Under the pieces are notes generated by a model that searched no databases, was not told the DNA's origin, and worked only from the letters and a program-made list of their open reading frames with translations. From an uncultured virus (IMG/VR IMGVR_UViG_3300025009_000076) (lineage: Duplodnaviria; Heunggongvirae; Uroviricota; Caudoviricetes), in IMG/VR virus record IMGVR_UViG_3300025009_000076, positions 58,298-78,297 of that record: a DNA stretch of 20,000 nt. One strand, given 5' to 3'. The stretch's first letter is position 1; each line of letters opens with the position of its first letter. Positions 1 to 16,661 of the stretch are shown here, piece after piece. The translations under genes were made by a program, and so were the position numbers.

Positions 1-267
1 TATTTTAGGTTTATTAGATTCAATTCAACGCAAAATAAGGAAGTACACTTCGTAACCTACGATCACACGATTGAGCAAAATTTAATGGCCTTATTAATGG
101 CGAAAGAAAGAATTAATGAGTATATCAAAACATTAGATTTTCAAGACCAAGAGGAAATTTATGAGGAATTTGACGTAGATTTGGGCATACTCGACGCACT
201 AATAGAAAAGGGAGAAGATGAGAATGGACATGTAAAGTTGACATGGGGAGAACAAAAGATAGTATAA
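1..267 (+). CDS. 5'-truncated CDS; C-terminus of a probable SNF2-like/SF2 helicase-domain protein
   Basis: Frame +1 is open from base 1, upstream of the listed ATG at 85: YFRFIRFNSTQNKEVHFVTYDHTIEQNLMALLMAKERIN... This resembles the SNF2 motif-VI tail (R..R....K.V.V...V...TIE......L..K). Followed by a terminator. Confidence 0.5.
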   Translation, partial: YFRFIRFNSTQNKEVHFVTYDHTIEQNLMALLMAKERINEYIKTLDFQDQEEIYEEFDVDLGILDALIEKGEDENGHVKLTWGEQKIV

Positions 268-272
268 GGCAT

Positions 273-312
273 AGAGGAAATGAACTAAAATGGTTTGTTT
301 CCTCTCTTTGTT
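273..312 (+). terminator. Rho-independent terminator
   Basis: AGAGGAAATGAACT (273-286) pairs with GGTTTGTTTCCTCT (292-305), including G-U pairs, followed by CTTTGTT; lies right after the stop at 267. Confidence 0.75.
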
Positions 313-346
313 CCCTATTATAAAGTAAAAAATAATTATTTATCTA

Positions 347-375
347 TTGCAATTTGTTTAGTTTTCATATAAAAT
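347..375 (+). promoter_or_regulatory. sigmaA-type promoter
   Basis: TTGCAA (347-352), 17 bp, TAAAAT (370-375); AT-rich UP-like tract upstream. Confidence 0.65.
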
Positions 376-412
376 AAGCAATAAGAAGCAAACTAGAAGG
401 AGCGTGTAACTT

Positions 413-769
413 ATGTCTAAATTAGCAGTACATAATGATGGTGTTTGCTCAGTGGTTGACCCATTCATAACAACTAATGAAAGATGTTTAACTTTTAAGT
501 ATGCAGGAAATGACAAAGTAGAGAAAGCAAAAAATCTTTCAAACTTATTAGATCAAAACAAAATAGATTATGTTTGCTATCTTGAAACAGGGAATTATTA
601 CCCTTGTCAATTTATCCTTAGAAGAAGTGGCAGAAAGTGGAATGATATAATGAAGTTGGTTAACAGTGTTCAATCTCCAAAATACGATTATGCTAAGATT
701 GACTTCTATATAACTGACGAAGTAAAGAAAAATGTTTTAGGTAAAATTCAAGTAATTCAATATTGTTAG
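413..769 (+). CDS. hypothetical protein, 118 aa
   Basis: ORF with SD AGAAGGAG upstream. Confidence 0.85.
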   Translation: MSKLAVHNDGVCSVVDPFITTNERCLTFKYAGNDKVEKAKNLSNLLDQNKIDYVCYLETGNYYPCQFILRRSGRKWNDIMKLVNSVQSPKYDYAKIDFYITDEVKKNVLGKIQVIQYC

Positions 770-780
770 TCCAATAAACC

Positions 781-809
781 TTACATTTCCAATACTAAAA
801 TGGTATAAT
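781..809 (+). promoter_or_regulatory. extended -10 sigmaA-type promoter
   Basis: TGgTATAAT (801-809); weak -35 TTACAT 17 bp upstream. Confidence 0.55.
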
Positions 810-845
810 ATGTATAACAAAATCAACTAGAAAGAGGGAATTAAA

Positions 846-1004
846 ATGGAAATTACTTTTGAACAACTGAAGAAAACTATGCTAAATGGATTAGAAGGAG
901 AATTTAAAAGATCAATTGAAGGGATTATTGATTGCAGTGAGAAAATCGGAAAAACAGTTCCAGAAACAATGGATAAAATTACTAAGATATTATTAGGACA
1001 ATAG
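846..1004 (+). CDS. small hypothetical protein, 52 aa (below the ORF-track cutoff)
   Basis: SD GAAAGAGGG, ATG 846, MEITFEQLKKTMLNGLEGEF...KILLGQ, TAG 1002-1004. Confidence 0.8.
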   Translation: MEITFEQLKKTMLNGLEGEFKRSIEGIIDCSEKIGKTVPETMDKITKILLGQ

Positions 1005-1015
1005 GTTGATTGAAG

Positions 1016-1054
1016 GTTACACACCAATAATTCTATAACAAATTGGCGTGTGAC
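1016..1054 (+). ncRNA. AUAACA-loop intergenic hairpin A
   Basis: GTTACAC-A-CCAAT (1016-1028) / ATTGG-C-GTGTGAC (1042-1054); loop carries ATAACA (1035-1040). Confidence 0.55.
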
Positions 1055-1089
1055 ATTGAACCAAAATATTGTAGAAAGAAGGAATTATA

Positions 1090-1443
1090 ATGAATTTATC
1101 AGAAATTACTCAAGATGCTTTTCAGATAATCAAAGATTTTAAACATGGTCATGGTCGTTATTCTTTGATTGTATCAAGTGAGTCAAAATATGGAGATTTT
1201 TCAATTGAATATCGAATGTTAAATAATGAAATTAATCAAATTTTGGTATCTGAGAGAATAGCACCTAATCATAGTTCTAAATTCGTGGTTACTCCAAATA
1301 ATTTCCGTACTATCACAGAACAAGGATTCGAAGCAGACAAATTCTTTGATAAAATCATAAAGGAAATGAATTTTGATGCTGTAGAGGTTCGTTGTTTTCC
1401 AGCCGATATGGAAGAAATATATTGTCAAGAATTTAATATCTAG
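1090..1443 (+). CDS. hypothetical protein, 117 aa
   Basis: ORF with SD AGAAAGAAGGA. Confidence 0.85.
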   Translation: MNLSEITQDAFQIIKDFKHGHGRYSLIVSSESKYGDFSIEYRMLNNEINQILVSERIAPNHSSKFVVTPNNFRTITEQGFEADKFFDKIIKEMNFDAVEVRCFPADMEEIYCQEFNI

Positions 1444-1500
1444 GTTGAAATCTGAGGTATTAGTATAACAATAACGATATGATCCCTCGACTTGAGTCTA
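1441..1500 (+). ncRNA. AUAACA-loop intergenic hairpin B (imperfect)
   Basis: TAGGT/GTCTA and GAGG (1454-1457)/CCTC (1485-1488) enclose ATAACAATAACG (1465-1476). Confidence 0.4.
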
Positions 1501-1528
1501 TAAATTAATTAGAAAGAGGGAATATATT

Positions 1529-1792
1529 ATGGGTATGATTAAAGAAAATGCAATGGAATTAAAGGCTAAAATCGAGAACCGTCACACCTTCGAACCAATT
1601 AATTTAAAATGTAATGGCGGTACGTTCTATGGAAGAGGTTGCCTTAATTATGTAGATTCTGGTGATAATGTAAATGGAATTTGGTGGTTTTCTAATGGTA
1701 GTGTAGGTGGTAGTTTTGAGGCCAGTGAAGAATTTGTGCTAACCACTATCGGAATTAATTACCAAGAAATTAAGGAGTATTTTGAAGGATAA
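1529..1792 (+). CDS. hypothetical protein, 87 aa
   Basis: ORF with SD GAAAGAGGG. Confidence 0.85.
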   Translation: MGMIKENAMELKAKIENRHTFEPINLKCNGGTFYGRGCLNYVDSGDNVNGIWWFSNGSVGGSFEASEEFVLTTIGINYQEIKEYFEG

Positions 1793-1818
1793 ATCAATTA
1801 AGAAAGAAGGAATTATTT

Positions 1819-2004
1819 ATGTCTGAAATTTCAATTTGGCAATTAAACAGAACTGATAATCAAGGCAATATCATTTCAGGTTATCAAGACATTTCCAAAA
1901 ACGTAACACGCGAACAGGCAATAACAGATTATCTTTACTACTTGGAGACCTCAGAAGGGATTGAAAATCCTAAGTGTGAGTGCATTGAAATTGATTGGGA
2001 ATAA
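1819..2004 (+). CDS. acidic hypothetical protein, 61 aa
   Basis: ORF with SD AGAAAGAAGGA. Confidence 0.8.
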   Translation: MSEISIWQLNRTDNQGNIISGYQDISKNVTREQAITDYLYYLETSEGIENPKCECIEIDWE

Positions 2005-2024
2005 ATTAATTGCATATGGAGAAT

Positions 2025-2074
2025 AGGCAATAACAATAGTACCATAACAGAACCGTTATAACAGGTTGTTGCCT
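2025..2074 (+). ncRNA. AUAACAG-loop intergenic hairpin C
   Basis: AGGCAATAAC (2025-2034) / GTTGTTGCCT (2065-2074); loop has ATAACAG twice (2044, 2058). Confidence 0.6.
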
Positions 2075-2117
2075 TCCTTTCGAGGTAAAGTTGACTAAAT
2101 ATGAAGGAGTGGAAATT

Positions 2118-2279
2118 ATGGAGAAAATTGACTCTATTAATATTCATTGTAGATGGTTTGATAGCAATACAGAAAGGGAGCGTATTCAAAGATTAATACT
2201 CAAAGGTAAAGTAGAAGGGGAAATAATCCAACATAACGAAACTGGAGAAGATTATTGGGGATGGTGGAAAAGATCCTAG
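2118..2279 (+). CDS. small hypothetical protein, 53 aa
   Basis: Start moved to ATG 2118, downstream of SD AAGGAGTG. Confidence 0.75.
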   Translation: MEKIDSINIHCRWFDSNTERERIQRLILKGKVEGEIIQHNETGEDYWGWWKRS

Positions 2280-2313
2280 TAAACAATAATTTTAAATGAA
2301 AAGGAGAAAAATT

Positions 2314-2505
2314 ATGAAAAACTATTTAGTAGAATTAATACTTGAACCGAGACTACCACAAGGAAAATATATTGGGCGTAGGTATATAACTATTAAATTA
2401 CCTGCTGATAATGAAATTGACGCAGGTAATTTTGCAAAAGAATCAATAGAAGTGTTATTGATTTCTAATGTATTGGTTATAGTAAATAAAGTATTGGAAA
2501 GTTAA
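2314..2505 (+). CDS. hypothetical protein, 63 aa
   Basis: Start moved to ATG 2314, downstream of SD AAAGGAG. Confidence 0.8.
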   Translation: MKNYLVELILEPRLPQGKYIGRRYITIKLPADNEIDAGNFAKESIEVLLISNVLVIVNKVLES

Positions 2506-2526
2506 TGTCTAGGGGCATTTAAAGCC

Positions 2527-2595
2527 CTTCTGAGCGTCAATAATGCTATAACAGTCATATATATCCATAACAGCAGAGTAAGGGACGTTCAGAAG
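2527..2595 (+). ncRNA. AUAACAG-loop intergenic hairpin D
   Basis: CTTCTGAGCGTC (2527-2538) / GACGTTCAGAAG (2584-2595), one G-U pair; ATAACAG at 2548 and 2567 inside. Confidence 0.65.
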
Positions 2596-2636
2596 AGTTC
2601 TGAAGACTCTAAAAATAAATTGTTGGAGGTTATTTT

Positions 2637-2975
2637 ATGAAAATATTGCAATTTGATTATCTTCAGGCAGAATATGATGGAGAAGTGCTAAAAGATTTTC
2701 TTATCGAACAGTTACCACGCTTTATAAATTGTGAACAAATGCAAACATACATAAAATCATCCGATGGATTTTGGCAAGATGTTAGAAATGAAATAACAAA
2801 GCAAAAAAGAGTTAAAAGGTTCAGTGAATTAGAAGATTATAAATGGATATTAGATTACCTTAATTTTTTAGCTGACAGAGATTTAGCAAAGGCAATAAAC
2901 AAAGGATTGAACACAAGAAATAAAAAGTATGCGGATCTTGAAAAATTCTTTATTAAATATTCAAAGGCAGCATGA
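2637..2975 (+). CDS. hypothetical protein, 112 aa
   Basis: ORF with SD GGAGGT; ends -KAA. Confidence 0.85.
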   Translation: MKILQFDYLQAEYDGEVLKDFLIEQLPRFINCEQMQTYIKSSDGFWQDVRNEITKQKRVKRFSELEDYKWILDYLNFLADRDLAKAINKGLNTRNKKYADLEKFFIKYSKAA

Positions 2976-3015
2976 ATGTACCATTTGCTCAGGTTAACAA
3001 AAGGAGGAATAACAA

Positions 3016-3222
3016 TTGATTATTAATATTGATCCTTATCAAAATACCTTTTATTCTCGTAAAATCAATAATAATCTATACAGACATGAGGGCAGACAGA
3101 ATACAATTGAATTTGTGATTGATAGTAAAACTCCAAAGACTCAAGAAGAAATTCTCGATTTTTTAGAATCAAAGTCAATAGATTATCTATTAAATAGAGA
3201 AGGAACTATCATAGATATTTAA
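3016..3222 (+). CDS. hypothetical protein, 68 aa
   Basis: TTG start with SD AAAGGAGG. Confidence 0.8.
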   Translation: MIINIDPYQNTFYSRKINNNLYRHEGRQNTIEFVIDSKTPKTQEEILDFLESKSIDYLLNREGTIIDI

Positions 3223-3234
3223 AGAGTTTATGCT

Positions 3235-3293
3235 CTTTATCTTAAATCTATCATAACAGAAGCCCTATATAGGTTGATGGATTTAAGATAAAG
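3235..3293 (+). ncRNA. AUAACAG-loop intergenic hairpin E (19-bp stem)
   Basis: CTTTATCTTAAATCTATCA (3235-3253) / TGATGGATTTAAGATAAAG (3275-3293), one G-U pair; ATAACAG (3253-3259) at the stem-loop boundary. Confidence 0.75.
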
Positions 3294-3344
3294 GATATAA
3301 ATCTAATCATTATATCCTAAAATAAAATCAAAGGAGGTAACAAA

Positions 3345-3452
3345 ATGAGCAAATTAAAATTACTCCAAGAATTCAAAAACATTTGCGATACTCATTCTAT
3401 TCCATTCACTTTTAAGTCATTTGACATGTTTCTTACTCATATTTCTAAATAA
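3345..3452 (+). CDS. small protein, 35 aa (below the ORF-track cutoff)
   Basis: Perfect SD AAAGGAGGT; MSKLKLLQEFKNICDTHSIPFTFKSFDMFLTHISK. Confidence 0.75.
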   Translation: MSKLKLLQEFKNICDTHSIPFTFKSFDMFLTHISK

Positions 3453-3512
3453 TCTTACATATTCTATATCAACTATAAACCAAAAATAAAATTATTGAAA
3501 GAAGGTAATCAA

Positions 3513-3803
3513 ATGCAAAAACCTAAAAATATCAAAAACTTAACCCATTCTGCTTCAAAACTTAATATCTTATACTTAGGCAAAGAAATTGTTTACACAG
3601 GCACAGGACACTCCTTAAGACCTTATCGTGGAGAAATCATTAACATTGCTTATTACTCAGACCTTGAACCTGTTCCATATGCAGAAATCAAGTTAAAGAT
3701 ATGGAACAGCCGGACAGTAACTAAAATTCTTCCATTATCTGATGTTGTTTTGGTATCTTCTTTGAAGAAAACTAAAACTAAGAAATCTAAGATAGCAGCA
3801 TAA
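3513..3803 (+). CDS. basic hypothetical protein, 96 aa, possible SH3-like beta-barrel
   Basis: Start moved to ATG 3513 after AAGAAGGT; Lys-rich tail ending KSKIAA. Confidence 0.8.
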   Translation: MQKPKNIKNLTHSASKLNILYLGKEIVYTGTGHSLRPYRGEIINIAYYSDLEPVPYAEIKLKIWNSRTVTKILPLSDVVLVSSLKKTKTKKSKIAA

Positions 3804-3806
3804 TTC

Positions 3807-3894
3807 AATATCTTTTCTATGGACACTGTAAAGCGTAAAATAATTATAACAATTGATTCCCATACGTTGTACAGTGTAATTCTTAAAAGGTATT
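3807..3894 (+). ncRNA. AUAACA-loop intergenic hairpin F (long, interrupted)
   Basis: AATATCTTTT/AAAAGGTATT, ACACTGTA (3823-3830)/TACAGTGT (3870-3877) and AGCGTA/TACGTT; apical ATAACA at 3846-3851. Confidence 0.7.
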
Positions 3895-3959
3895 AGTTAA
3901 ACTCAATGCTAATATCTCAACTATTGTATAACAAAATCAAAAGGAGGACAGGAGATATC

Positions 3960-4289
3960 ATGTCAAAATTATCTAATGTAGAAATCATTGCAATTGAAGC
4001 ATCTAAAAAAGAATATATTTATAATGGTGAGAATATTTTTACTTTTGCTCAGTGGGAAAAGAGAGGATTCGGAGTTAAGAATGGGCAAAAAGCATTTATC
4101 AAGACTAGATTAATGAGTCAGGGAGAAAATCCAAGATCGATCCCAGTATCGCTTTATACCATCGAACAGGTAAAATATAACGAAGACTTATGGAATGGCA
4201 GACCTCGCAAACCACGACAAATAAAAGATGAAATTGGTTATTATCTTGTAAACAAGCAACGTACTCAGAGGGAAGTTATTATGGTATAA
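3960..4289 (+). CDS. ArdC-like ssDNA-binding-domain protein (ArdC N-terminal/DUF1738-like), 109 aa
   Basis: TFAQWEKRGFGVKNGQKA matches the TF.QW...G..V.KG.K motif of the ArdC N-terminal domain; start moved to ATG 3960 after AGGAG. Confidence 0.65.
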   Translation: MSKLSNVEIIAIEASKKEYIYNGENIFTFAQWEKRGFGVKNGQKAFIKTRLMSQGENPRSIPVSLYTIEQVKYNEDLWNGRPRKPRQIKDEIGYYLVNKQRTQREVIMV

Positions 4290-4330
4290 TCTTGTAAATG
4301 TCATAACAGCCATAACACGGACGTTCGAGA
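4290..4330 (+). ncRNA. AUAACAG-loop intergenic hairpin G
   Basis: TCTTG..AATGTC / GACGTT.CGAGA; loop ATAACAGCCATAACACG. The 3' arm is similar in sequence to hairpin D. Confidence 0.55.
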
Positions 4331-4369
4331 GGTTCAGAAGATATTTTTAAATTATTAGGAGGAATTATT

Positions 4370-4621
4370 ATGCAAAGTGGTTTACAGTCTAAAAATGAGT
4401 ATATTCTATATCGTTCTATGTATAACAATGAACTTCACAATGCTATAATGGATAAGGATGTTCAAGCGATTGAAATATTATTAGATGGATTAACAAAAGC
4501 ACATTTGAAGAATTATGATTTTAGCCTATATGATTCAAATACTTTTATTGATATTGATTATGTTTACAATGAGCATGTAAAACAAATTGAAGAATTGGAG
4601 GCATATTGTCGTGGTTTATAA
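4370..4621 (+). CDS. hypothetical protein, 83 aa
   Basis: ORF with SD AGGAGG. Confidence 0.85.
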   Translation: MQSGLQSKNEYILYRSMYNNELHNAIMDKDVQAIEILLDGLTKAHLKNYDFSLYDSNTFIDIDYVYNEHVKQIEELEAYCRGL

Positions 4622-4743
4622 ATTCAAGCAAGCAATTGTAAATGGTGATCAATATATTTATGGATTTGGATTTTATTTGAGTATTGTGAAGTGGTATAAG
4701 TAATCCCATTAATTCATTAATAACAAGAAAGGTTGTGTAGTTG

Positions 4744-4902
4744 ATGGAATTAGGTGATAAAGTTAAAATCAGAAATGGTATGCTTAGAGGAGTAATTGTC
4801 GAGATACAAAAATCCATGAAAGGTAGAAAGATATTTGTAGTTCAAATTACTAAAAATGTTAGTAATGGATATTGGGAAGAGGAATTAGAGAAAATTATTT
4901 GA
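4744..4902 (+). CDS. small KOW/SH3-like protein, 52 aa (below the ORF-track cutoff)
   Basis: SD AGAAAGG; MELGDKVKIRNGMLRGVIVEIQKSMKGRKIFVVQITKNVSNGYWEEELEKII. The GD.V.I..G...G.I.EI pattern is KOW-like. Confidence 0.7.
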   Translation: MELGDKVKIRNGMLRGVIVEIQKSMKGRKIFVVQITKNVSNGYWEEELEKII

Positions 4903-4942
4903 CCCAACGAAACTATTAATTTATACCATATTATGGATTTAG

Positions 4943-4973
4943 AAACCCTTATAACAGTAGTGTTTCAGGGTTT
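4943..4973 (+). ncRNA. AUAACAG-loop intergenic hairpin H
   Basis: AAACCCT (4943-4949) / AGGGTTT (4967-4973); ATAACAG at 4951-4957. Confidence 0.55.
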
Positions 4974-5010
4974 GACGAATTTAAAAATTAGAAGAAAGAA
5001 GGAAATTATT

Positions 5011-5322
5011 ATGAAAAAGTCAGATTTGAAAACGGGAATGAGATTTAAAACTAGAGATGGCGAATTATATTTGGTTTTAAAAGATTGTGAAACATATTTA
5101 GGAAATCACACTTGTTTTGTAAATTTTAATGGAAGAGGATTTAATTTTGATGATAATTATACCGAGGAATTAACACTTGTACAACTAAATGAAGTAGAAG
5201 AAGATGGTTATGGCGATGTCATGGAAATTTATACTACGGAAAGAGGATTTGTTAATGGTTGCACATTAGATCCTAAAGATTTAAAGTTAATTTGGAAAAG
5301 AAATGAAGCTGAATCTAAGTAG
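5011..5322 (+). CDS. phage-type hypothetical protein, 103 aa
   Basis: Start moved to ATG 5011 after AAGAAGGA; begins MKKSDLKTGMRFKTRDG and ends LKLIWKR. Confidence 0.85.
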   Translation: MKKSDLKTGMRFKTRDGELYLVLKDCETYLGNHTCFVNFNGRGFNFDDNYTEELTLVQLNEVEEDGYGDVMEIYTTERGFVNGCTLDPKDLKLIWKRNEAESK

Positions 5323-5372
5323 CACGAAAAGCAAGTTTAATTGATTTAAAACAAGAAAGGAAATGATAAATT

Positions 5373-5717
5373 ATGAAAACTATTTTAAAAGAAGGAACAG
5401 ATTTTAAATGGATTAAGGTAAAAAATAGGCATGGTTATGAATTCCCTTGTCCTAAGTTATTAGATGGGAATAAATTACTACGTATAAGTGATCCATCTTT
5501 TAATTCAGTGGTTTATCACAGAGATAATGAAAATACACTAAAATTGGTATTGATTAAAAATGGACAATATGAAGTCAATGGAAGACTATCAAACTTTTGG
5601 TATTGGTACGAATTAGATGAAAATCTTCAAATAACAGAAGAGAAAAATGGTTATGGTAATTTCTTCGAACCTTTAAAACCTTTTGATGTTAAAATTAAAT
5701 ATGAAATAAGTCAATGA
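5373..5717 (+). CDS. hypothetical protein, 114 aa
   Basis: ORF with SD GAAAGGA. Confidence 0.85.
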   Translation: MKTILKEGTDFKWIKVKNRHGYEFPCPKLLDGNKLLRISDPSFNSVVYHRDNENTLKLVLIKNGQYEVNGRLSNFWYWYELDENLQITEEKNGYGNFFEPLKPFDVKIKYEISQ

Positions 5718-5768
5718 AAGCAAAACTTAAATGTATTCTAAATCAAAAAGAGAAAGAGGTAATTAATT

Positions 5769-6074
5769 ATGGAAAATATTAATAAAGCATTAGTAGATAT
5801 TAAAAGCCAAACTGGTCTGGAAATTAAGAACGAAAGCAGAGAAGGTATTCCCTTATTCAATGTTCCAAACAGACAACCATTTAAATTTAATTTAGAAATT
5901 AGTTATAATTCAATTAGAGGACAAGGAAGTTTTGAACTGCATTTTCCATCTCTATATGTCAAAGCAAATGACGTAAGAGAATTTTCTAACCAAGTAAATT
6001 TACTAACTTTCTTGATTGAGGATTTAAACAAAGCACTTAAAAAAGATTTCAGTAATGAATGGGTATTGCAATAA
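5769..6074 (+). CDS. hypothetical protein, 101 aa
   Basis: ORF with SD AAAGAGGT. Confidence 0.85.
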   Translation: MENINKALVDIKSQTGLEIKNESREGIPLFNVPNRQPFKFNLEISYNSIRGQGSFELHFPSLYVKANDVREFSNQVNLLTFLIEDLNKALKKDFSNEWVLQ

Positions 6075-6075
6075 C

Positions 6076-6150
6076 ACTGGTCTGAGCCAGTATAAAACGC
6101 CTTAAGCTCAGAGCGTTAGCAGGGTTGATAATAATCCTGCTAGGTGGTAT
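6076..6150 (+). ncRNA. pistol self-cleaving ribozyme
   Basis: P1 ACTGG (6076-80)/CCAGT (6087-91). Its loop TCTGAG forms a pseudoknot with CTCAGA (6107-12). ATAAA linker; P2 GCC (6099-6101)/GGT (6146-48); conserved TTAAG and GCGT segments; P3 TAGCAGGGTT (6117-26)/AATCCTGCTA (6133-42); GGT junction. Same order and spacing as the pistol consensus; predicted cut G6144/U6145. Confidence 0.9.
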
Positions 6151-6172
6151 CAAAAAAGAAAGGATGATTAAA

Positions 6173-6412
6173 ATGTATTATAAAAACGAGTGGAAAATGA
6201 TTTTATTAACAGGAGCAGGGAAGGAGGAACAAGAAGAACAAATAGTTGAAGGAGAATTAGTTCAAGAAGGAAATGATATTTTATTTAAAAGCAGAGAACT
6301 TAATATTGTCTATGATAAAAATATATGGCATAAACTTAATGAAGTATCTAATGAATGGAATAAGTTTATTTATCTATATGTTGAAAAGGATAATTATAGA
6401 CAGTTCCATTAA
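6173..6412 (+). CDS. hypothetical protein, 79 aa
   Basis: Start moved to ATG 6173 after GAAAGGATGA; the listed TTG at 6125 lies inside the ribozyme. Confidence 0.8.
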   Translation: MYYKNEWKMILLTGAGKEEQEEQIVEGELVQEGNDILFKSRELNIVYDKNIWHKLNEVSNEWNKFIYLYVEKDNYRQFH

Positions 6413-6443
6413 AAAGTAAAACTTATGGGAAAAATAATTTTAT

Positions 6444-6472
6444 TTGATTTTGTTCTTAGAATACATTACAAT
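6444..6472 (+). promoter_or_regulatory. possible sigmaA promoter for the HNH gene, overlapped by an inverted repeat
   Basis: TTGATT (6444-49), 17 bp, TACAAT (6467-72); inverted repeat TAGAATACATTA (6457-68)/TGGTGTATTCTA (6476-87). Confidence 0.45.
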
Positions 6473-6579
6473 ATTTGGTGTATTCTATAGAGTGAGAACT
6501 CTAAAATTATAAAGGAGGGTAGAGAGGAAAACTTAATATAGTTAAATAATAATAAATAAAAGAGGAGAGATATTAGAAA

Positions 6580-7479
6580 TTGGCAACAATAAAACAATTG
6601 GAAGCAATAGATAGACTAAGAAAAGAAAAGTTTGCAAGAGAACATAAAATTATAAACGGAGTTGACCATAAATTTTGTAATAAACATCACATTTATTTTC
6701 CAGAAGAAGATATATGGTTTCCATCAACATTAGAATTTTTTCATAACAGCAACAAAAATAAAACGGATGGTTTGCATCCTTGGTGTAAAAGATGTGCAAG
6801 CGACAAATCTAGCATTAATTATCTAGAAAATAGAGAAAGAAGTGATTTAGCTCATAAAAAATATGAAGGGTCTGAAAAACATAAAGCATGGTCTGCTAGA
6901 AATTATCAAATGTTTAAAGATAAGCAATCACAATGGAGAAAAGATAATCCAGAAAAATGTAGGGAATATTCTAAACAACATAGAATACATGATATTACAG
7001 AGGCTGAATGGAAGAAAGAATTAGAAGTATTTAATTATGAATGTGCATATTGTGGAATCAGTGAAGAAGAAAGTATAAAAATACTAAAACAAAGACTTCA
7101 TAAAGATCATGGAGACCATCTAGGAGCAAATGATTTAAGAAATAGCATCCCTGCATGTAGAAGTTGTAATAGTAAAAAACATCAGGATGACATAGATGAT
7201 TGGTATAAGAATAGAAAATTTTATACCGAAGAAAGATATAATAAAATTATCTGGTGGCTCACAGAAGGATATAAAGATTACATAGAAGACAAACCACCGT
7301 ATAGAATAATTAGGAAACAAAATGAGGGTAGAAAAGATTTTCATTGGGAGTTATGGACTGTTGATGAAATGAGGAATATGATGGAATGTATTGATATTAA
7401 AGGTAAAAGAAAAGAAATAATAAAAGATATTGAAGGAGGTATTTTAGATGAATACTTAATGCAAGAAACGGCTAAATAA
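6580..7479 (+). CDS. HNH (beta-beta-alpha-metal) endonuclease with Zn-binding motifs, 299 aa
   Basis: CAYCG...LHKDH...NDLRNSIPACRSCNSKK (CxxC, DH, N, CxxCN). N-terminal CNKH...F....KTDGLHPWCKRC Zn-ribbon-like domain. TTG start, SD GAGGAG. Confidence 0.85.
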   Translation: MATIKQLEAIDRLRKEKFAREHKIINGVDHKFCNKHHIYFPEEDIWFPSTLEFFHNSNKNKTDGLHPWCKRCASDKSSINYLENRERSDLAHKKYEGSEKHKAWSARNYQMFKDKQSQWRKDNPEKCREYSKQHRIHDITEAEWKKELEVFNYECAYCGISEEESIKILKQRLHKDHGDHLGANDLRNSIPACRSCNSKKHQDDIDDWYKNRKFYTEERYNKIIWWLTEGYKDYIEDKPPYRIIRKQNEGRKDFHWELWTVDEMRNMMECIDIKGKRKEIIKDIEGGILDEYLMQETAK

Positions 7480-7483
7480 TAAA

Positions 7484-7846
7484 AACCTTGATCACATATA
7501 ATAATAGTAGTGGTTAAGGTTGGGTAGTTTTAAGGCATGAAAATCCATTGCCACGACTACATGGTCAGAACATTTATAACAGAACTCAATATTATTTACA
7601 TGAGATTTTCAAACGACCGAATAACGGACATTAGAGCGTTACGCAATTATGCGAAATGAGATTAAGTATTCCCCGTATTTGGTGAAAAACGTTGCTATAA
7701 CCTAACTGTACGTTATTCGTATAGTTAGAGTCCTAAGTAACAGTCTGTGACTTTAAAGACGCAGGGAGCGACTTTTAACGCTACCCAATATTGGGGAACG
7801 TCTTTAATAATTTAATAAATGCTTCGTATGTATTACAGATGAAGTA
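7484..7846 (+). ncRNA. candidate large structured ncRNA (about 360 nt), class not recognised
   Basis: Longest gene-free gap, GC-richer than its surroundings, with at least 7 consecutive helices and a long-range pairing TTCCCCGTATTTGG (7669-82)/CCAATATTGGGGAA (7785-98). Confidence 0.6.
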
Positions 7847-7873
7847 AAATAAAATCAAAGGATGTGAATAACA

Positions 7874-8014
7874 ATGACAAAAGAACAAATCAAACATTCT
7901 TGTTGGAATTGCTTGCTCCTTAACCTAGATAAAGCAGAATACAAATCCTGTATCAAAGGCCACAAACTAAAATTAATCTTCAATGTAAACGAATGCTCAG
8001 ATTGGGATGGTTAA
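7874..8014 (+). CDS. small Cys-containing protein, 46 aa (below the ORF-track cutoff)
   Basis: SD AAAGGATGTG; MTKEQIKHSCWNCLLLNLDKAEYKSCIKGHKLKLIFNVNECSDWDG (CxxC...C...C). Confidence 0.7.
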   Translation: MTKEQIKHSCWNCLLLNLDKAEYKSCIKGHKLKLIFNVNECSDWDG

Positions 8015-8054
8015 TATCGATACCCAAAATATGGTATAACAGTCGCACCATCCT
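8004..8054 (+). ncRNA. AUAACAG-bulge hairpin J, possibly also a terminator
   Basis: GGGATGGT (8004-11)/ACCATCCT (8047-54), with inner CGA/TCG and TACC/GGTA; ATAACAG (8036-42) bulged on the 3' side; T-rich downstream. Confidence 0.55.
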
Positions 8055-8091
8055 TTATCTAACTTTATTTTTATATTTATACTAAACTCTA

Positions 8092-8120
8092 TTGTAATCT
8101 TGTTCCAATATTGATATACT
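8092..8120 (+). promoter_or_regulatory. sigmaA-type promoter (extended -10)
   Basis: TTGTAA (8092-97), 17 bp, TATACT (8115-20) preceded by TGn. Confidence 0.7.
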
Positions 8121-8160
8121 AGTATTAATAAAGAAATAAAAATAAAAAGGAAGTGATAAA

Positions 8161-8364
8161 ATGGAAGTTGAAGAGAGAATTAAAAACAGTATCAACATTG
8201 AGTTCAGAGATTTTAATGGAAACAAACATCTTTATTACAATGAAGAAACGCCGTCTGAACAAATTAACTTTATTGGTTTTAGTATTGGAAACTTCATAAA
8301 ATCATTAGGTTGGCCTAATGACACTGTAAAAGAAATATTGAAAAGTATTGATGAAAATAGTTAA
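8161..8364 (+). CDS. hypothetical protein, 67 aa (monocistronic unit)
   Basis: SD AAAGGAAGTGA; flanked by its own promoter and terminator. Confidence 0.8.
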   Translation: MEVEERIKNSINIEFRDFNGNKHLYYNEETPSEQINFIGFSIGNFIKSLGWPNDTVKEILKSIDENS

Positions 8365-8378
8365 GGGATTGGATTTTT

Positions 8379-8403
8379 AGGGGAAGCAATTCCCTTTCTT
8401 CTT
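8379..8403 (+). terminator. Rho-independent terminator
   Basis: AGGGGAA-GCAA-TTCCCTT hairpin with a GNRA loop, followed by TCTTCTT. Confidence 0.7.
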
Positions 8404-8466
8404 AAAAATTTGTATATTGCATAAATTAGATCATAAATAAATTTTAAATAAAAGGAGAAAATACAT

Positions 8467-8712
8467 ATGAAAATCGGAACAAACGTCACAATCAAATTAA
8501 ATCTAATTCCTAATCAAATCTACGGAGGAGCAATATTTGTGCCTGAAATGGAAGAATTTTGTGGTAGAAGTGCAGTTATCACAGAGATATTATTTCCTGT
8601 TGTAAATGAAGGTGAAAGTAAATTTAGTTATGGATTAGGTATTGATATGAACAAGGAATTTGAATTTACTGATGAGATGTTGGATGTTGTGGAATTGGGT
8701 AAAGTAGCATAG
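8467..8712 (+). CDS. hypothetical protein, 81 aa, SH3-like
   Basis: SD AAAGGAG; MKIGTNVTIK...EMEEFCGRSAVITEI...FTDEML pattern. Confidence 0.85.
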   Translation: MKIGTNVTIKLNLIPNQIYGGAIFVPEMEEFCGRSAVITEILFPVVNEGESKFSYGLGIDMNKEFEFTDEMLDVVELGKVA

Positions 8713-8741
8713 AGATTAGTTATTTGAAGGAGGAATATATA

Positions 8742-8927
8742 ATGAAAAAAGTTGATCCAATGACAGCTTTAAATGCAATATTCTTTGAAAACAAAAGAGT
8801 ATACGTAGAACACAATGTAAACTGTCTTAATTACTCAAGAGAATTTAAATTAGGTAAAAATATTGGAATAATGTCTGAGATACCAGTAACGGTTTTAATT
8901 CATGGTAATTGGTTTATTGTAGGATAA
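8742..8927 (+). CDS. hypothetical protein, 61 aa
   Basis: Start moved to ATG 8742 after AAGGAGG. Confidence 0.8.
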   Translation: MKKVDPMTALNAIFFENKRVYVEHNVNCLNYSREFKLGKNIGIMSEIPVTVLIHGNWFIVG

Positions 8928-8979
8928 TTTAAAAGGCAGATTTCCTAGTATTGTAAGAAAGAAAGAAAGGATGATTAAA

Positions 8980-9204
8980 ATGGAAAATTACACTCCTGAA
9001 AAACACGGAATAGTAACAGCAATTAGACTTTTCTATGAAAATGACAGACAACCAATGGCAGAATTAGCTTTTTGTTTTGGTGGTACGGATATTATCGAAT
9101 GGACAAATGTTAGTCAAAGAGAAAAATATAGTAAAGGAATTAACGGTTATACTTTTTTCTTTGATGAAAGACAGCAGAATAGTTTTGAAAGTTTTAAAAA
9201 ATAA
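8980..9204 (+). CDS. hypothetical protein, 74 aa
   Basis: Start moved to ATG 8980 after GAAAGGATGA. Confidence 0.8.
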   Translation: MENYTPEKHGIVTAIRLFYENDRQPMAELAFCFGGTDIIEWTNVSQREKYSKGINGYTFFFDERQQNSFESFKK

Positions 9205-10230: not shown

Positions 10231-10488
10231 ATGTATAAAGAAAATGATAAAGTTATGGTCACATGTAAAGAGATTAGTAGTAAAGATGAGTTGGCCTATA
10301 TTGCTTCAAGAACTCCCTTTGGTGCATATGAAGTGACATTACTAATGGATCATAAGCCTAGTAGTGGATTTGATCCTGTTAGAGTTTTTAGCATAGAACA
10401 AATGCGCTTTGCTACTAAGCAGGAAGTTACTGATAATGTAAGAGAGTGGGAAGTGAGACATAATTATAAGTTAGGAGGAATGATTTAA
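10231..10488 (+). CDS. hypothetical protein, 85 aa, SH3-like
   Basis: ORF with SD GAAAGGA. Confidence 0.8.
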   Translation: MYKENDKVMVTCKEISSKDELAYIASRTPFGAYEVTLLMDHKPSSGFDPVRVFSIEQMRFATKQEVTDNVREWEVRHNYKLGGMI

Positions 10489-13438: not shown

Positions 13439-14446
13439 ATGTTAGAAATTCAAAGATTTGAATCAAGTATATCCTCAAAATTCGGAGATCGTGTCCACCT
13501 AAATTTAAATGATTATGCTGAACCAAATAGCATCAAATGCAAAATGGCAAACATTGGAGAAGAAATTATTCCAGATATGTTCGCTTATGATGGAAGTCCT
13601 TATTTTCCTTATGAAACTTTTATGAAGTATTCTAATGGAAATCACTATGCTAGGGTCTATGTTGAGGTAGAATATAAATCTAAAGAACTTGATTTAGATT
13701 CTACTATTTTTAATACTGCAAATGGCATAAACAGTTATATCACAAATTTAGAAACTTTACATCGTATTATGGATATCAGGTATATAGCAAAAAACAAGAA
13801 AAATATAAAATTAAATGAATTTGTTTGGAGAGGAACTTTAAAATTTGATCAATTTGGTCAGACAATGTTTATATATGATCAAGAATTTTCTAAAGATACT
13901 CCTGATTGGGTTAAGAATGGAACGGTAGATCCAGAAACTTTTGGTTGTTATTGCGAAAGACGGTCAGGAACTTTTAAGAATATACCGGATCAAGATGATA
14001 TTTGTCCTGAGTGTGGAAACAAATGGACTATAGGCAATATTGTTGATTATGTAACTATTGAACAAAAAGATTATAAACAAATACCATACCATAAATATTG
14101 CTTAAAAATTCACAACAATAAGAAACAATTGAAAGAGTTTCAAGATGTCTTTAAAGATGCATATAACTTAAATGAATTAAAATTCAATGCAATACCAAAT
14201 GAATATTGTTCATGTGATAAATGTGCATCTTGGTTTATTGTATCAACTCCAGACGGTGACATAAAAATTGGTTGGAGAAAAAGAGTTATTAATATTGAAT
14301 GGATGGATAGTTATAAAAAGTTTAAGGAGACTTTTAACTCTGAAGAGACTACTACATTTATTGGATATGTTCAAAGAGGTATTCACGCATGGGGTGTAGA
14401 AAAGGCAAAGGAATATTTAAAAAGAGCAAAAGAATCTATAGTTTAA
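13439..14446 (+). CDS. hypothetical protein, 335 aa, with Zn-binding motifs
   Basis: SD AAGAAGGA; CPECG, HKYC and CSCDKC motifs; IKIGWRKRVINIEW. Confidence 0.9.
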   Translation: MLEIQRFESSISSKFGDRVHLNLNDYAEPNSIKCKMANIGEEIIPDMFAYDGSPYFPYETFMKYSNGNHYARVYVEVEYKSKELDLDSTIFNTANGINSYITNLETLHRIMDIRYIAKNKKNIKLNEFVWRGTLKFDQFGQTMFIYDQEFSKDTPDWVKNGTVDPETFGCYCERRSGTFKNIPDQDDICPECGNKWTIGNIVDYVTIEQKDYKQIPYHKYCLKIHNNKKQLKEFQDVFKDAYNLNELKFNAIPNEYCSCDKCASWFIVSTPDGDIKIGWRKRVINIEWMDSYKKFKETFNSEETTTFIGYVQRGIHAWGVEKAKEYLKRAKESIV

Positions 14447-14473: not shown

Positions 14474-14749
14474 ATGAAAATTCAAGACTTCATTAACAGA
14501 GGAATAAGGGTTATAAATGATATGAATGAACTTAGAATCCCAAGCAGAGCCTCAATTCCATTTTCTAATGGATGGGTAGCAAGTATTGTAACAACAGATA
14601 ATGGTTATTCGGTAGCAGTATGTGATTATAATGGTTATTTCAATTGGGGTATTTTAAACAGTTATGGAGCAGAGCGAGGAAAATTTCAATGCAAAACAGA
14701 AGATGAAGTTTGTAATGCGTTAGCAATTATAGAATCTTTACCAAATTAA
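14474..14749 (+). CDS. hypothetical protein, 91 aa
   Basis: ORF with SD GAAAGGA. Confidence 0.85.
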   Translation: MKIQDFINRGIRVINDMNELRIPSRASIPFSNGWVASIVTTDNGYSVAVCDYNGYFNWGILNSYGAERGKFQCKTEDEVCNALAIIESLPN

Positions 14750-14814
14750 AAGGTATTGAGATAATGAGTGGCGAATTATGTATTTGGATTATTTAACTAC
14801 AAAGGAGTCAAATA

Positions 14815-15012
14815 ATGCATTGGAAATCCGGCATAACATCATGGAAAGATCCTTATACTAATGAATTTGTCACTCGAAAAGAATATGGAAAACTATCTAA
14901 AAGAGCGTCAGTTAATGGATTCTCTGCTCCTGAATATTTAATCTCTAAGGGTTATTTTAAAGATAGGTATCATTATTATAGACTTAAAGATAAAATTTTT
15001 TTAGATAGGTAA
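14815..15012 (+). CDS. basic hypothetical protein, 65 aa
   Basis: ORF with SD AAAGGAG. Confidence 0.75.
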   Translation: MHWKSGITSWKDPYTNEFVTRKEYGKLSKRASVNGFSAPEYLISKGYFKDRYHYYRLKDKIFLDR

Positions 15013-15032
15013 AATTGAAAGGAATGATTAAA

Positions 15033-15452: not shown

Positions 15453-15538
15453 ATAAAATGAGTTAAAATAACAAAGGGATATAATCCTTGGAACCATGCA
15501 ACTTATCCTATTATTAAATTAAAAGGAGTGTTTATAAA

Positions 15539-15820: not shown

Positions 15821-15841
15821 TAATTATTGGGAGGCGCATCT

Positions 15842-16021: not shown

Positions 16022-16071
16022 ATTAAAATGACGATTTCATACCTATTTTGTAGTGAAAGGATGATGTTAAA

Positions 16072-16398: not shown

Positions 16399-16444
16399 TT
16401 TAAATCAAAGATAGATTTTGAGGGAAATAAAGGAGGATTAACTT

Positions 16445-16636: not shown

Positions 16637-16661
16637 AAAATATGAGGAGGGAATTTAAATT

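Follow-up and report, generated by a model that had tools for sequence, protein, structure and literature searches.

ATAACA, a short word displayed in gene-junction hairpins, marks one block of an uncultured phage genome and points to an undescribed control system

The window, a stretch of 20,000 nucleotides from a roughly 166-kb uncultured phage of plasmid-prophage-like character, raises the question of why so many of its gene junctions hold a stem-loop displaying ATAACA, and of what might read this word. A sequence-only reading had proposed that these stem-loops are repeated recognition sites, read on mRNA, for one RNA-binding protein or RNase. Its observation was confirmed and turned out to be larger in extent than reported: the motif-rich block covers contig positions 47,405-66,457 (about 19 kb), comprising window positions 1-8,160 and 11 kb further upstream. 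Across phages the block spans 16-20 kb, lies on the + strand and is multi-gene and accessory; its content is about 40 genes, including one for a DarB-like helicase-methylase. The window's own phage (G004) was compared with a complete relative (G001) and, at individual junctions, with relatives L008, L009 and L010. The region is served by canonical TTGACA/TATAAT and TGnTATAAT sites, and in the window's phage the upstream border of the block coincides with a promoter-like site near 46.85 kb. Terminator-like hairpins were located as follows, the second being likely the 3' border of the motif-rich unit:

273..305, + strand: terminator-like hairpin inside the block, after the helicase gene
8379..8396, + strand: terminator-like hairpin with a T-rich tail, directly after the last motif copy

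The window has 12 copies of ATAACAG on its + strand and none on its - strand, with 3.96 copies expected on both strands together and 12 reached in 1/200 shuffles. The nine intergenic positions given by the sequence-only reading were all correct, and to its two coding copies a third must be added:

1921..1927, + strand: coding ATAACAG, with further coding copies at 5631 and, as the third, 6743

The enrichment over shuffled intergenic DNA that it had anticipated was found. Within contig 47,405-66,457 (3,479 intergenic nt), 29 intergenic ATAACA were seen against 2.56 expected, a number reached by 0/300 dinucleotide shuffles, and 12 ATAACAG against 0.39; the word is present in 19 of the 29 intergenic intervals listed there. 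ATAACA and ATAACAG rank first among the 6-mers and 7-mers, respectively, of the intergenic DNA of the block, ahead of Shine-Dalgarno (SD) words. Outside the block (contig 66.5-78.3 kb), 8 ATAACA were seen against 9.1 expected. ATAACA forms the core; the next base is A or G in 84/94 intergenic copies, and G never precedes it (0/94). In 11.5 kb of intergenic DNA from four phages ATAACA occurs 89 times; among its single-base variants, the A/T-rich ATAAAA and ATAATA occur 34 and 19 times, and all others at most 10 times. Tandem copies are spaced by 0-22 nt. A second short word, TTCGAG, recurs 3' of several stems (4 seen, 0.29 expected).

Each block holds about 50 copies, many of them coding, so that the word cannot be regarded as an intergenic element only. 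Block coding sequence is enriched about 2.4-fold, and comparison with synonymous shuffles gave seen/expected values of 22/9.0, 23/6.3, 12/4.2 and 21/5.9, each reached in 0/200 shuffles; the coding copies fall in two reading frames (36 and 42).

Intergenic copies lie mostly in the loops of hairpins that occupy the gaps between a stop codon and the next SD. The following sites were characterized in the window:

814..819, + strand: ATAACA without a hairpin, directly 3' of an extended -10-like TGGTATAAT (z 0.34)
1016..1054, + strand: junction hairpin with a 13-bp stem and a 13-nt loop carrying UAUAACAA (dG -12.5, z -4.41); including its lower stem, it reaches from the stop codon (1002-1004) to the SD
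1441..1500, + strand: junction element with AUAACAAUAACG and then UCGAC, a weak hairpin in the window's phage (z 0.15)
2025..2074, + strand: B/F-type hairpin with three ATAACA, then UCCUUUCGAG (z -3.88)
2527..2595, + strand: hairpin with a 12-bp stem and a large loop carrying two AUAACAG (z -4.03)
3235..3293, + strand: long hairpin with CAUAACAG on the 5' side of the loop (z -6.38)
3807..3894, + strand: long composite hairpin with UAUAACAA at its apex (z -5.30)
4290..4330, + strand: weak 6-bp hairpin with AUAACAG and AUAACAC, then UUCGAG (z -0.36); a promoter-like TGGTATAAT lies directly 5'
4943..4973, + strand: short hairpin (z -2.48)
7576..7582, + strand: ATAACAG without a convincing hairpin, in a 394-nt non-coding stretch 3' of an HNH gene (z -0.01)
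8004..8054, + strand: final motif hairpin of the block, loop with UAUAACAG (z -2.92)
15459..15505, + strand: one ATAACA in a fold that is not significant, outside the block (z -1.01)

Eleven hairpins had been claimed; seven of them folded much better than shuffles and four (1441, 4290, 7562 and 15459) did not, and the last, described as a weaker outlier, is not counted as a member of the family. Hairpins enclosing intergenic copies had a mean z of -2.16 (z < -2 in 14/31), and those enclosing coding copies one of -0.29 (z <= -2 in 3/22), in agreement with a word that is preferentially unpaired. The asymmetry of G-T deviations, from which selection on the sense strand had been deduced, was also recovered: the + strand fold was the more stable in 29/40 hairpins and the - strand fold in 9/40, with 104 and 55 G-U pairs, respectively (Wilcoxon p = 3e-5; the 40 hairpins include homologues and are hence not independent).

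At homologous junctions the word is kept while stems turn over with complementarity retained, as seen in alignments of the 1441, 3235 and 3807 junctions and of the 2025 element. The counterparts of 1441..1500 in L010 (3790-3875) and L008 (17532-17614) have strong, unrelated stems around a retained UAUAACAA, and compensated stem changes separate both 3235..3293 and 3807..3894 from their L008 counterparts, L009 being without the motif at the former. The 2025..2074 hairpin belongs to a dispersed family of elements of about 90 nt, conserved despite differing flanking genes, whose comparison showed 19 pairs, 2 of them compensatory. Hairpin elements are in fact kept even where both neighbouring genes differ, and some sites are missing from close relatives (A and M2 in L008, J in L009). 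Loops range from 7 to more than 30 nt and carry one to three copies; the minimal forms, in L010, consist of nothing more than a stem and a 7-nt loop, AUAACAA or AUAACAC, the latter on a 7-bp stem at the junction equivalent to 4943..4973. The stems are mostly unrelated and lack U-tails, as had been noted from the letters: this is a sense-strand stem-loop family sharing one short unpaired word, in which no motif hairpin scored as a T-tailed terminator and none matched an Rfam family.

Pistol and twister ribozymes were found at junctions equivalent to those of the hairpins, one of them in the window:

6076..6149, + strand: pistol self-cleaving ribozyme (RF02679, 60.1 bits against a gathering cut-off of 34.5, E 6e-9), filling the junction from the stop codon (6072-6074) to the SD before ATG 6173, which elsewhere is the hairpins' position

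The hairpins as such, like these ribozymes, probably act in stabilizing RNA, in coupling translation or as insulators. This shared position, together with the recurrence of TTCGAG, could suggest that the hairpins are a new class of self-cleaving ribozymes or factor-independent terminators. That idea has hardly any probability, since the minimal form is only a plain stem and a 7-nt loop, loop size and copy number vary, T tails are absent, and the word itself is placed on known ribozymes: in L009 it is carried in the variable (spare) loops of one twister and one pistol. It is also very improbable that the word is a -10-like promoter element (YATAAC) for a phage-specific transcription factor. ATAACA resembles TATAAT, word-to-start distances cluster (53-70 nt in 29/87), and selection would remove directional signals from places where they misfire; however, no second conserved element was found to accompany the word, canonical promoters are already present, leftward copies are tolerated, copies lie within ribozyme loops and coding sequence, and sense-strand G-U complementarity would be useless to a duplex promoter. 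Of the 95 ORFs of at least 150 aa that were scanned in the complete relative, none was identified as a phage RNA polymerase or sigma factor; several were without any match, and five more ORFs of such size, spanning two loci, lay outside the scan. Promoter, terminator and new-ribozyme readings are accordingly considered unlikely.

Outside the block, pooled sense strands (319 kb) contain 43 ATAACA against 147.8 expected (z -8.6, avoidance rank 2 of 3,237 hexamers), and the early block contains 0 against 12.1. This avoidance tracks the DNA strand rather than the transcript. In the 68-132 kb region of G001, with genes on the - strand, the + (antisense) strand held 8 copies against 36.5 expected and the sense strand 34 against 52.5; with synonymous shuffles of these genes, the values were 6 against 19.9 (0/100) for antisense and 23 against 30.1 (5/100) for sense. 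Of 2,130 hexamers, none is more strongly avoided than ATAACA on the + strand of this region; on its - strand the word ranks 110. In 13/13 segments outside the G001 and G004 blocks the seen/expected ratio on the + strand was 0.00-0.39, whichever strand codes; on the - strand, the ratio was 0.40-1.33. An internal control word, TACATA, does track gene orientation. Confinement to the block combined with same-strand avoidance is not predicted by a purely mRNA-level reading, and this part of the original interpretation was not sustained, while one reader specific for the sequence, an RNase or an RNA-binding protein, is still the best idea. Since avoidance follows the DNA strand, an RNA reading would require that the late genes are covered by functional + strand transcripts; near-consensus promoters in that region are at chance level (5 found, about 3.7 expected by our own rough estimate).

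These strand ratios, the top avoidance rank and the synonymous shuffles favour a serious rival, which we nevertheless regard as rather doubtful: that a machine travelling the whole genome with one polarity reads ATAACA directly in the + DNA strand, probably in single-stranded form. Such a machine could belong to replication of the rolling-circle or unidirectional type (acting on the displaced or the lagging-template strand), to genome entry or to packaging, or it could be a recombinase or nickase that depends on hairpins. On this view the block would concentrate signals such as those for priming, pausing or cassette recombination, and ectopic copies would be purged from the + strand everywhere. 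G-T-tolerant + strand hairpins suit single-stranded DNA equally with RNA, and MazF-fold proteins can bind single-stranded DNA analogues without cutting. The block is mosaic when relatives are compared, with hairpins conserved between differing genes, reminiscent of cassette-boundary sites, and an ori-like non-coding region with a switch in strand composition, adjoining genes for an O-like initiator and a helicase, lies a few kb 5' of it. Against this, the proteins seen include no Rep/HUH enzyme and no relaxase, and the single recombinase tested fits Xer; with the integron integrase model TIGR02249 it reached 112 bits where the cut-off is 265. To our knowledge no system unites genome-wide avoidance on one strand with a 4-fold local excess. 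Moreover, the hairpins match gene junctions exactly, from stop codon to SD, a role common to RNA ribozymes, and the block borders in the window's phage coincide with transcription signals.

We tentatively favour the view that AUAACA plus A or G marks the block and is recognized in single-stranded form by one trans-acting factor specific for this sequence, with RNA cleavage or binding as the most likely activity. The reader would act on RNA and may be the clade's conserved long-form MazF/PemK-type endoribonuclease; cutting or binding at the word would process, time or shut off the polycistronic mRNAs of the block, and transcripts without the word would escape. If the factor cleaves, the enrichment in coding sequence would be self-destructive, which counts against this reading, as does the absence of some sites from close relatives. 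Analogues for the proposed step are RegB, described as acting on GGAG in early mRNAs of phage T4 (PMC1702504), and Kid, described as reducing copB mRNA of plasmid R1 (PMC4344636).

The candidate (PF02452, E 2.8e-18) has PemK 4hke and Bacillus subtilis EndoA as its best solved relatives and an N-terminal extension of about 125 aa, possibly an Xre-type HTH (a weak lead). An Arg and a Thr align at positions that we take to be catalytic. Long-form homologues (54-65% identity) occur in G004, G006, G007, G008 and G009, and motif-poor or motif-less relatives have only short forms of 128-150 aa; no antitoxin gene was identified adjacent to the candidate. The case that this RNase reads AUAACA is circumstantial. 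Short MazF homologues are present in motif-less relatives too, and the required word would differ from U^ACAUA, given as the strict 6-nt word of Bacillota MazF that is avoided in rRNA (bioRxiv 10.64898/2026.08.06.743204); MazF cleavage words are given as 3-7 nt (PMC10864209).

The reader might instead be a non-nucleolytic RNA-binding regulator, phage- or host-encoded, the word serving nut-like antitermination or a translational or stability factor. Loop display, word specificity and tandem copies at spacings suiting a dimer or oligomer speak for it, and a binding tag would fit the copies found on ribozyme loops. Its probability is low: no RNA-binding domain was found among the contig's 112 proteins, titration alone does not explain the empty early block, and the strand problem is common to all RNA readings. 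Nut sites occur once or twice per operon; the copy number here and the coding copies exceed the nut-type need of one per operon and do not resemble the nut-like sites suggested earlier. A slim chance remains for a decoy or sensor of a host sequence-specific endoribonuclease (MazF-like defence), the phage having cleared the word from its genes and gathered exposed copies in one expendable transcript. This would combine genome-wide avoidance with exposed loop copies, and Bacillus phages are reported to activate, repress and sense host MazF (bioRxiv 10.64898/2026.08.06.743204); however, cuts at coding copies would destroy the block, helicase-methylase included, and the sense strand of late genes only mildly avoids the word (23 against 30.1).

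Compared with known systems, the preferred reading, a word for one sequence-specific factor, resembles T4 RegB/GGAG, in which, as described in PMC1702504, a short word concentrated in one phage transcript class, mostly intergenic, is read as single-stranded RNA and the class is inactivated or processed. Here, the word has 6-7 nt instead of 4, lies in hairpin loops 5' of the SD rather than within it, shows an excess in coding sequence as well, and its avoidance tracks the DNA strand. MazF, PemK and Kid are likewise strict in the single-stranded words that they read, which are up to 6-7 nt long and selected against in protected RNAs, a mobile element may direct a toxin RNase that it encodes at its own polycistronic mRNA, as with Kid, and the clade encodes a family member with the aligned Arg and Thr; AUAACA, the putative cleavage word of the phage enzyme, is not the U^ACAUA of B. 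subtilis MazF, and the candidate bears the N-terminal extension. RNase III hairpins without terminator tails occupy nearly every junction of the long T7 early operon, and also occur in SP82/SPO1. This parallel, drawn earlier, fits in position alone; here stems are often 6-13 bp, loops are large, and what is conserved is a word in the loop, not an internal loop. PeSL cassettes of T4-type hyperplastic regions, as presented in PMC2839356 and PMC4122927, share repeated regulatory elements bordering small fast-changing ORFs in a mosaic region, and the neighbouring early block (33.8-46.7 kb) of the window's phage closely resembles this organisation; the motif hairpins, in contrast, have no promoter or terminator, and their shared word is too short for homologous recombination. 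Finally, integron attC sites also separate small same-direction ORFs by imperfect hairpins with variable stems, one-strand folding and a very short conserved core (RYYYAAC/GTTRRRY), but an integron integrase is absent here, that core lies in the stem and the present word in the loop, and the genes of the block carry SD and promoters of their own.

The window holds 12 copies of the heptamer ATAACAG on its + strand and none on its - strand, and across the whole contig there are 21 copies on the + strand versus 2 on the - strand. All 21 lie within 47.5-66.4 kb, inside a word-rich + strand stretch of about 19 kb (contig 47,405-66,457, comprising window 1-8,160 and 11 kb upstream) that is referred to here as the block. 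In the intergenic DNA of the block (3,479 nt), ATAACA was seen 29 times against 2.56 expected, a value reached in 0 of 300 shuffles; the enrichment over shuffled intergenic DNA that the sequence-only reading had anticipated for ATAACAG was thereby borne out for the core hexamer. ATAACA ranked first among the intergenic 6-mers of the block, above AAGGAG, and was present in 19 of 29 intergenic intervals. The intergenic DNA of the blocks of four phages (11.5 kb) held 89 copies, and among the single-base variants the A/T-rich ATAAAA (34) and ATAATA (19) were the most frequent, all others having at most 10. The preceding base was G in 0 of 94 copies, and the following base was A or G in 84 of 94. 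The informative core of the motif is the hexamer ATAACA. Two copies of ATAACAG had been noticed earlier in coding sequence; coding copies do exist, and a third, at window 6743, had been overlooked. Compared with synonymous-codon shuffles, ATAACA was in excess in coding sequence of the block (22 vs 9.0, 23 vs 6.3, 12 vs 4.2, and 21 vs 5.9; each 0/200), with copies in both possible frames (36 and 42) and evenly spread along genes. A recurrent extended ribosome-binding site, AAGGAGCGTGT, precedes several genes (window 400-412, 10436-10451 of the contig stretch L003, and other starts); GAGCGT was seen 6 times in block intergenic DNA against 0.16 expected. Window 7480-7873, 3' of a free-standing HNH gene, is a 394-nt non-coding stretch with no Rfam match and no homologue beyond the same phage.

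The contig (78,297 nt, 29% G+C), of which the window is the final 20 kb, derives from groundwater metagenomes, and IMG/VR holds near-identical and related contigs. Among these, G001 (166,652 bp, with terminal repeats, rated complete) supplies the full genome map. Its + strand carries replication and maintenance genes, including those for a ligase, a primase, a Pol III alpha-like polymerase, NrdD, a partition protein, integrases and an IS607-like element; the - strand holds the structural and lysis genes, at 68-132 kb. Genes for a helicase and an O-like initiator are the neighbors of an ori-like non-coding region at about 133-135.5 kb. A scan of 95 G001 ORFs of at least 150 aa revealed no phage RNA polymerase and no sigma factor. 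Two known RNAs were also found in stretch L025 of G001: a HEARO RNA (13601-13819, 141 bits) that precedes an HNH-type ORF and, adjoining IS607-like transposase genes, a RAGATH-18 RNA (18086-18153). On the + strand of the contig, an early block (33.8-46.7 kb, L002 13800 to L003 6700) is followed by the motif block (about 47.4-66.5 kb, ending near window 8,160) and then by tightly packed genes with few hairpins. In the early block, which resembles PeSL cassettes, nearly every small gene has its own TTGACA-17-TATAAT promoter and T-tailed terminator, and ATAACA is absent from the + strand. The motif block is preceded by a 703-nt ORF-free leader (contig 46702-47404, L003 6702-7404), which separates its first gene from a promoter-like site and in which no Rfam family reached threshold. 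Upstream of the early block, some 2.8 kb without ORFs (contig 31.0-33.8 kb, L002 11000-13800) switch abruptly from G/T-rich to A/C-rich where gene orientation diverges, and are probably an origin or control region. The contig also encodes several GIY-YIG and HNH endonuclease genes. On its - strand (contig 14505-17675, L001) a gene matching phrog_8308 is divided into two ORFs that flank a NUMOD3 homing-endonuclease ORF, an arrangement that looks like an intron or a mobile insertion; its G001 counterpart is a single 888-aa ORF. Megablast against a collection of named phages returned no close relatives, and the best protein-level relative of the helicase in that collection was Clostridium phage D-1873 (45% identity), at whose helicase locus the word shows no strand bias (27:21). 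A metagenome scan with an alignment of the DUF262 protein yielded one record already in the comparison set and one distant match, and nothing else.

The intergenic copies are displayed on hairpins that typically extend from, or from next to, the upstream stop codon to or into the next Shine-Dalgarno sequence. Of the 11 hairpins described earlier, 7 folded with a z of -2.5 or lower, and those at 1441, 4290, 7562, and 15459 did not. The enclosing hairpin had a mean z of -2.16 for intergenic copies versus -0.29 for coding copies. The + fold was the stabler one in 29 of 40 cases and the - fold in 9 of 40, with about twice as many G-U pairs on the +, in agreement with the earlier remark that G-T deviations favor the mRNA-sense strand. 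Loops range from exactly 7 nt (AUAACAA and AUAACAC in L010, a locus of a relative) to more than 30 nt and hold one to three copies of the word, at times in tandem (AUAACAAUAACA). A second short word, UUCGAG, stands 3' of several stems (4 seen vs 0.29 expected), and in a subfamily of hairpin elements that includes window 2025-2074 it forms a lower stem (GAGA/UUUC) that is conserved and contains a G-G mismatch. Such subfamilies of elements of about 90 nt are found at various junctions and keep 72-76% identity between phages even if the genes on both sides are unrelated. At three homologous junctions (E, J, and K) the stem was wholly replaced, with complementarity kept and UAUAACAA retained; close relatives have lost the word at some sites (at A and M2 in locus L008, at J in locus L009).

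Several known classes of element were compared with these hairpins. Rfam 15, which the sequence-only reading had named as a check, gave for the whole window (E<=1) the pistol ribozyme discussed below and one chance miRNA match, and no family for the hairpins; in the upstream block (E<=10) it gave 12 weak matches, mostly miRNA-like, the best with an E of 0.11 and none near the gathering score. A scan for GC-rich stems followed by a T run (window 1-9000, + strand) scored 273-305 and 8379-8396 alone, so none of the motif hairpins is terminator-like, as their lack of U-tails had led one to expect. Sigma-70/sigma-A promoters, scanned as -35/-10 hexamers 16-18 nt apart with T as the last base of the -10 (a setting under which YATAAC without a final T cannot score as a -10), gave 47 promoter-like sites vs 53.8 in shuffles and none at motif hairpins. 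There was no conserved element upstream of the word, and an AR9-type late promoter (AACA-N6-TW) was rejected on finding positions +12 and +13 unconserved. The nut-like antitermination role proposed earlier looks unlikely: lambda-type nut/boxB sites number one or two per operon and have a short stem, a 5-nt GNRA-like loop, and boxA nearby, while there are about 50 copies of the word per block, coding sequence included, and loops run from 7 to more than 30 nt. RNase III processing sites have a duplex of about 20 bp or more and follow the proximal and distal box rules of the enzyme; some of the extended stems here have at least 30 paired positions and others 6-8 bp. An anticodon-loop mimic, tRNA-Asn pairing, and Hfq ARN binding, prompted by the 7-nt loops and tandem copies, were set aside.

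One junction of the window, which the sequence-only reading had passed over, is exactly filled from stop codon to Shine-Dalgarno sequence by a predicted pistol self-cleaving ribozyme. It matches RF02679 with 60.1 bits (gathering score 34.5) over the full model (positions 1-68 of 68). Rfam models identified a pistol and three twisters in the blocks of two relatives, in the same type of junction.

Ribozymes predicted in gene junctions of the block
Window 6076-6149, + strand: pistol
L009 15057-15121, 11561-11622, and 19073-19146: one pistol and two type-P5 twisters
L008 16564-16629: one twister

In L009, the word is found in the variable terminal loops of two ribozymes, a twister (UUAUAACAAUCA) and the pistol (GUUUAUAACAAU), and the latter is followed by AUAACAAUAACAG. 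Since the word sits on variable loops of ribozymes, it is a modular single-strand tag and not a catalyst. The promoter, terminator, and new-ribozyme readings of the motif each fail specific tests.

Outside the block the word is avoided, and the avoidance is bound to one DNA strand.

Copies of ATAACA, seen vs expected, by region and strand
Early block of the contig, + strand: 0 vs 12.1
L008, early region, + strand: 1 vs 7.4
L009, early region, + strand: 0 vs 8.0
G001, block, 137-155 kb, + strand: 69 vs 16.1
G001, 0-68 kb (genes on +), + strand: 8 vs 52.6
G001, 68-132 kb (genes on -), + strand: 8 vs 36.5
G001, 0-68 kb, - strand: 32 vs 37.8
G001, 68-132 kb, - strand: 34 vs 52.5

The ratio of seen to expected copies on the + strand was 0.00-0.39 in all 13 tested non-block segments of G001 and of G004, the record of the phage of the window. 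Ranked by avoidance under an order-3 Markov model, ATAACA came second of 2,099 hexamers on the + strand of G001 0-68 kb and first of 2,130 on the + strand of its - gene region, but on the - strand only 70th and 110th, respectively. The pooled + gene regions (319 kb from four records, not all of them independent, as G004 and G007 represent the phage of the window or one almost identical to it) held 43 copies vs 147.8 (z -8.6, rank 2 of 3,237). Synonymous shuffles of + genes gave 5 vs 18.2 for the sense and 22 vs 21.3 for the antisense strand, and those of - genes 23 vs 30.1 and 6 vs 19.9, respectively. The control word TACATA was enriched on the sense strand in both gene orientations; the pipeline therefore detects transcript-bound signals, and the avoidance of ATAACA is not one. 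A strictly specified word of 6-7 nt, displayed in single-stranded form on the + strand, sets one hyperplastic block apart from the rest of the genome, where it is purged. In whole records (G001, G004, G006, and G009), the sense strand is about 2-fold enriched in TACATA (the word U^ACAUA of Bacillota MazF) irrespective of which strand codes, often in the form of TACATAATG at start codons, and the palindromes AGATCT and AGTACT are strongly avoided. Evasion of type III restriction fits the one-strand depletion but is contradicted by the 69 + strand block copies facing about 77 - strand copies elsewhere in G001. A Chi-like signal was rejected too, avoidance elsewhere being unexpected for such a word.

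That the antisense strand of the late genes avoids the word requires either functional + strand RNA there or a reader acting on DNA. Near-consensus + promoters in the late region were at chance level (5 found vs about 3.7 expected, a rough estimate). A DNA-level reader would recognise + single-stranded hairpins as the genome replicates (by a rolling circle or unidirectionally), enters the cell, is packaged, or recombines its cassettes. It stands as a serious rival, though a less probable one than the RNA reading; against it, the hairpins fit gene junctions, the borders of the block are transcription-unit-like in the phage of the window, and no Rep/HUH or integron-type enzyme was found in the G001 scans. 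Recombination of the integron type (attC and IntI) was rejected because, of three G001 recombinases scanned, the best fits Xer (NF040815, 234 bits) and scored 112 with the integron-type model TIGR02249 (cut-off 265). No terminator was found on the + strand at the end of the G001 block.

A candidate reader of RNA is encoded by these phages. Pfam matched almost none of the contig's 112 proteins. A 279-aa protein encoded on the + strand of G001 (L025:8995-9831) has a C-terminal PemK_toxin domain (PF02452, residues 127-234, E 2.8e-18), whose 66.6 bits (cut-off 23.1) place it in the MazF/PemK family. Its best PDB matches were 4hke, 7bxy, 1ne8, and 4mdx, its closest solved relatives being PemK and the MazF proteins of B. 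subtilis and S. aureus, and an Arg and a Thr align at what are presumably the MazF catalytic positions. MazF/PemK toxins cleave single-stranded RNA sequence-specifically and are neutralised by a cognate antitoxin; none was identified for the G001 protein. The N-terminal part of this long form, about 125 aa, is conserved and had no Pfam match; in the Atlas, Xre-type HTH clusters at 0.83-0.85 are a weak lead, and the predicted structure (pLDDT 38.7) was too poor for use. Long-form homologues (54-65% identity) occur in the phage of the window (G004) and in G006-G009; short forms of 128-150 aa alone are found in G005, which has one clear motif hairpin, and in the clade G011-G014, which lacks the motif, and G015 has no MazF-like form. 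Directly downstream of the G001 gene lies that of an AgrB-like protein (L025 9862-10503, PF04647, E 1e-36), and a DUF5317 protein is encoded upstream; these neighbors suggest a Bacillota-type host and a phage-borne quorum-sensing part.

On these grounds we tentatively propose, giving it somewhat less than an even chance, that a sequence-specific reader, most likely the long MazF-type RNase, acts on RNA, cutting or binding the polycistronic transcripts of the block. It would do so at the junction loops, copies in coding sequence being less accessible. In this way the expression of accessory and anti-defence genes (among them those for a DarB-like methylase-helicase and the DUF262 protein) might be timed or shut off, or their transcripts processed; word-free transcripts would be spared. 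The hairpins, like the ribozymes, may insulate cistrons and couple translation. A broader and less probable alternative is a genome-wide system absolute to one DNA strand, in which ATAACA is forbidden and is tolerated and loop-displayed solely in one hyperplastic cassette block. The reader would then be a machine crossing the whole genome with one polarity, on + single-stranded DNA (replication, entry, or packaging) or pervasive + RNA; the long-form MazF-fold protein might serve it as the sequence-specific binder of single strands. The word would then be a novel cis code that divides a viral genome in two, a core purged of it and an accessory compartment marked by it. If the word is instead the target of a phage-borne MazF-type enzyme, the virus would sort its own transcripts through a strict-specificity RNase and a genome-wide site code legible from sequence alone, and the hairpin with its 6-nt loop word would be an RNA tag, natural and modular, that works alongside self-cleaving ribozymes in insulating operons. 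The role of pistol and twister ribozymes in phages could be clarified as well, because here they occupy a defined series of equivalent junctions. Were the code read on DNA, the strand-absolute avoidance would point to an unrecognised polar process in large temperate phages. Under either reading, other viral genomes can be screened computationally for the contrast between block and rest, which is a simple signature.

Literature searches on phage pistol and twister ribozymes and on phage-encoded MazF yielded no description of such a motif, and none of the listed papers that contain the string AUAACAG was relevant. Published work reports that MazF words have 3-7 nt (PMC10864209), that the Bacillota word is strictly U^ACAUA and avoided by rRNA (bioRxiv 10.64898/2026.08.06.743204), that Kid of plasmid R1 lowers its own copB mRNA (PMC4344636), and that T4 RegB inactivates early mRNAs at GGAG (PMC1702504). 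RegB/GGAG and the MazF regulons are nearest to the present system in logic, the early RNase III sites of T7 in position, the T4-type PeSL cassettes in genome context (PMC2839356 and PMC4122927), and integron attC hairpins in form. None of these combines a loop-displayed word with strand-absolute, genome-wide avoidance. The motif system is filed here with the site-coded RNase or RNA-binding regulons, with an appreciable chance, well below even, that it is something categorically new.
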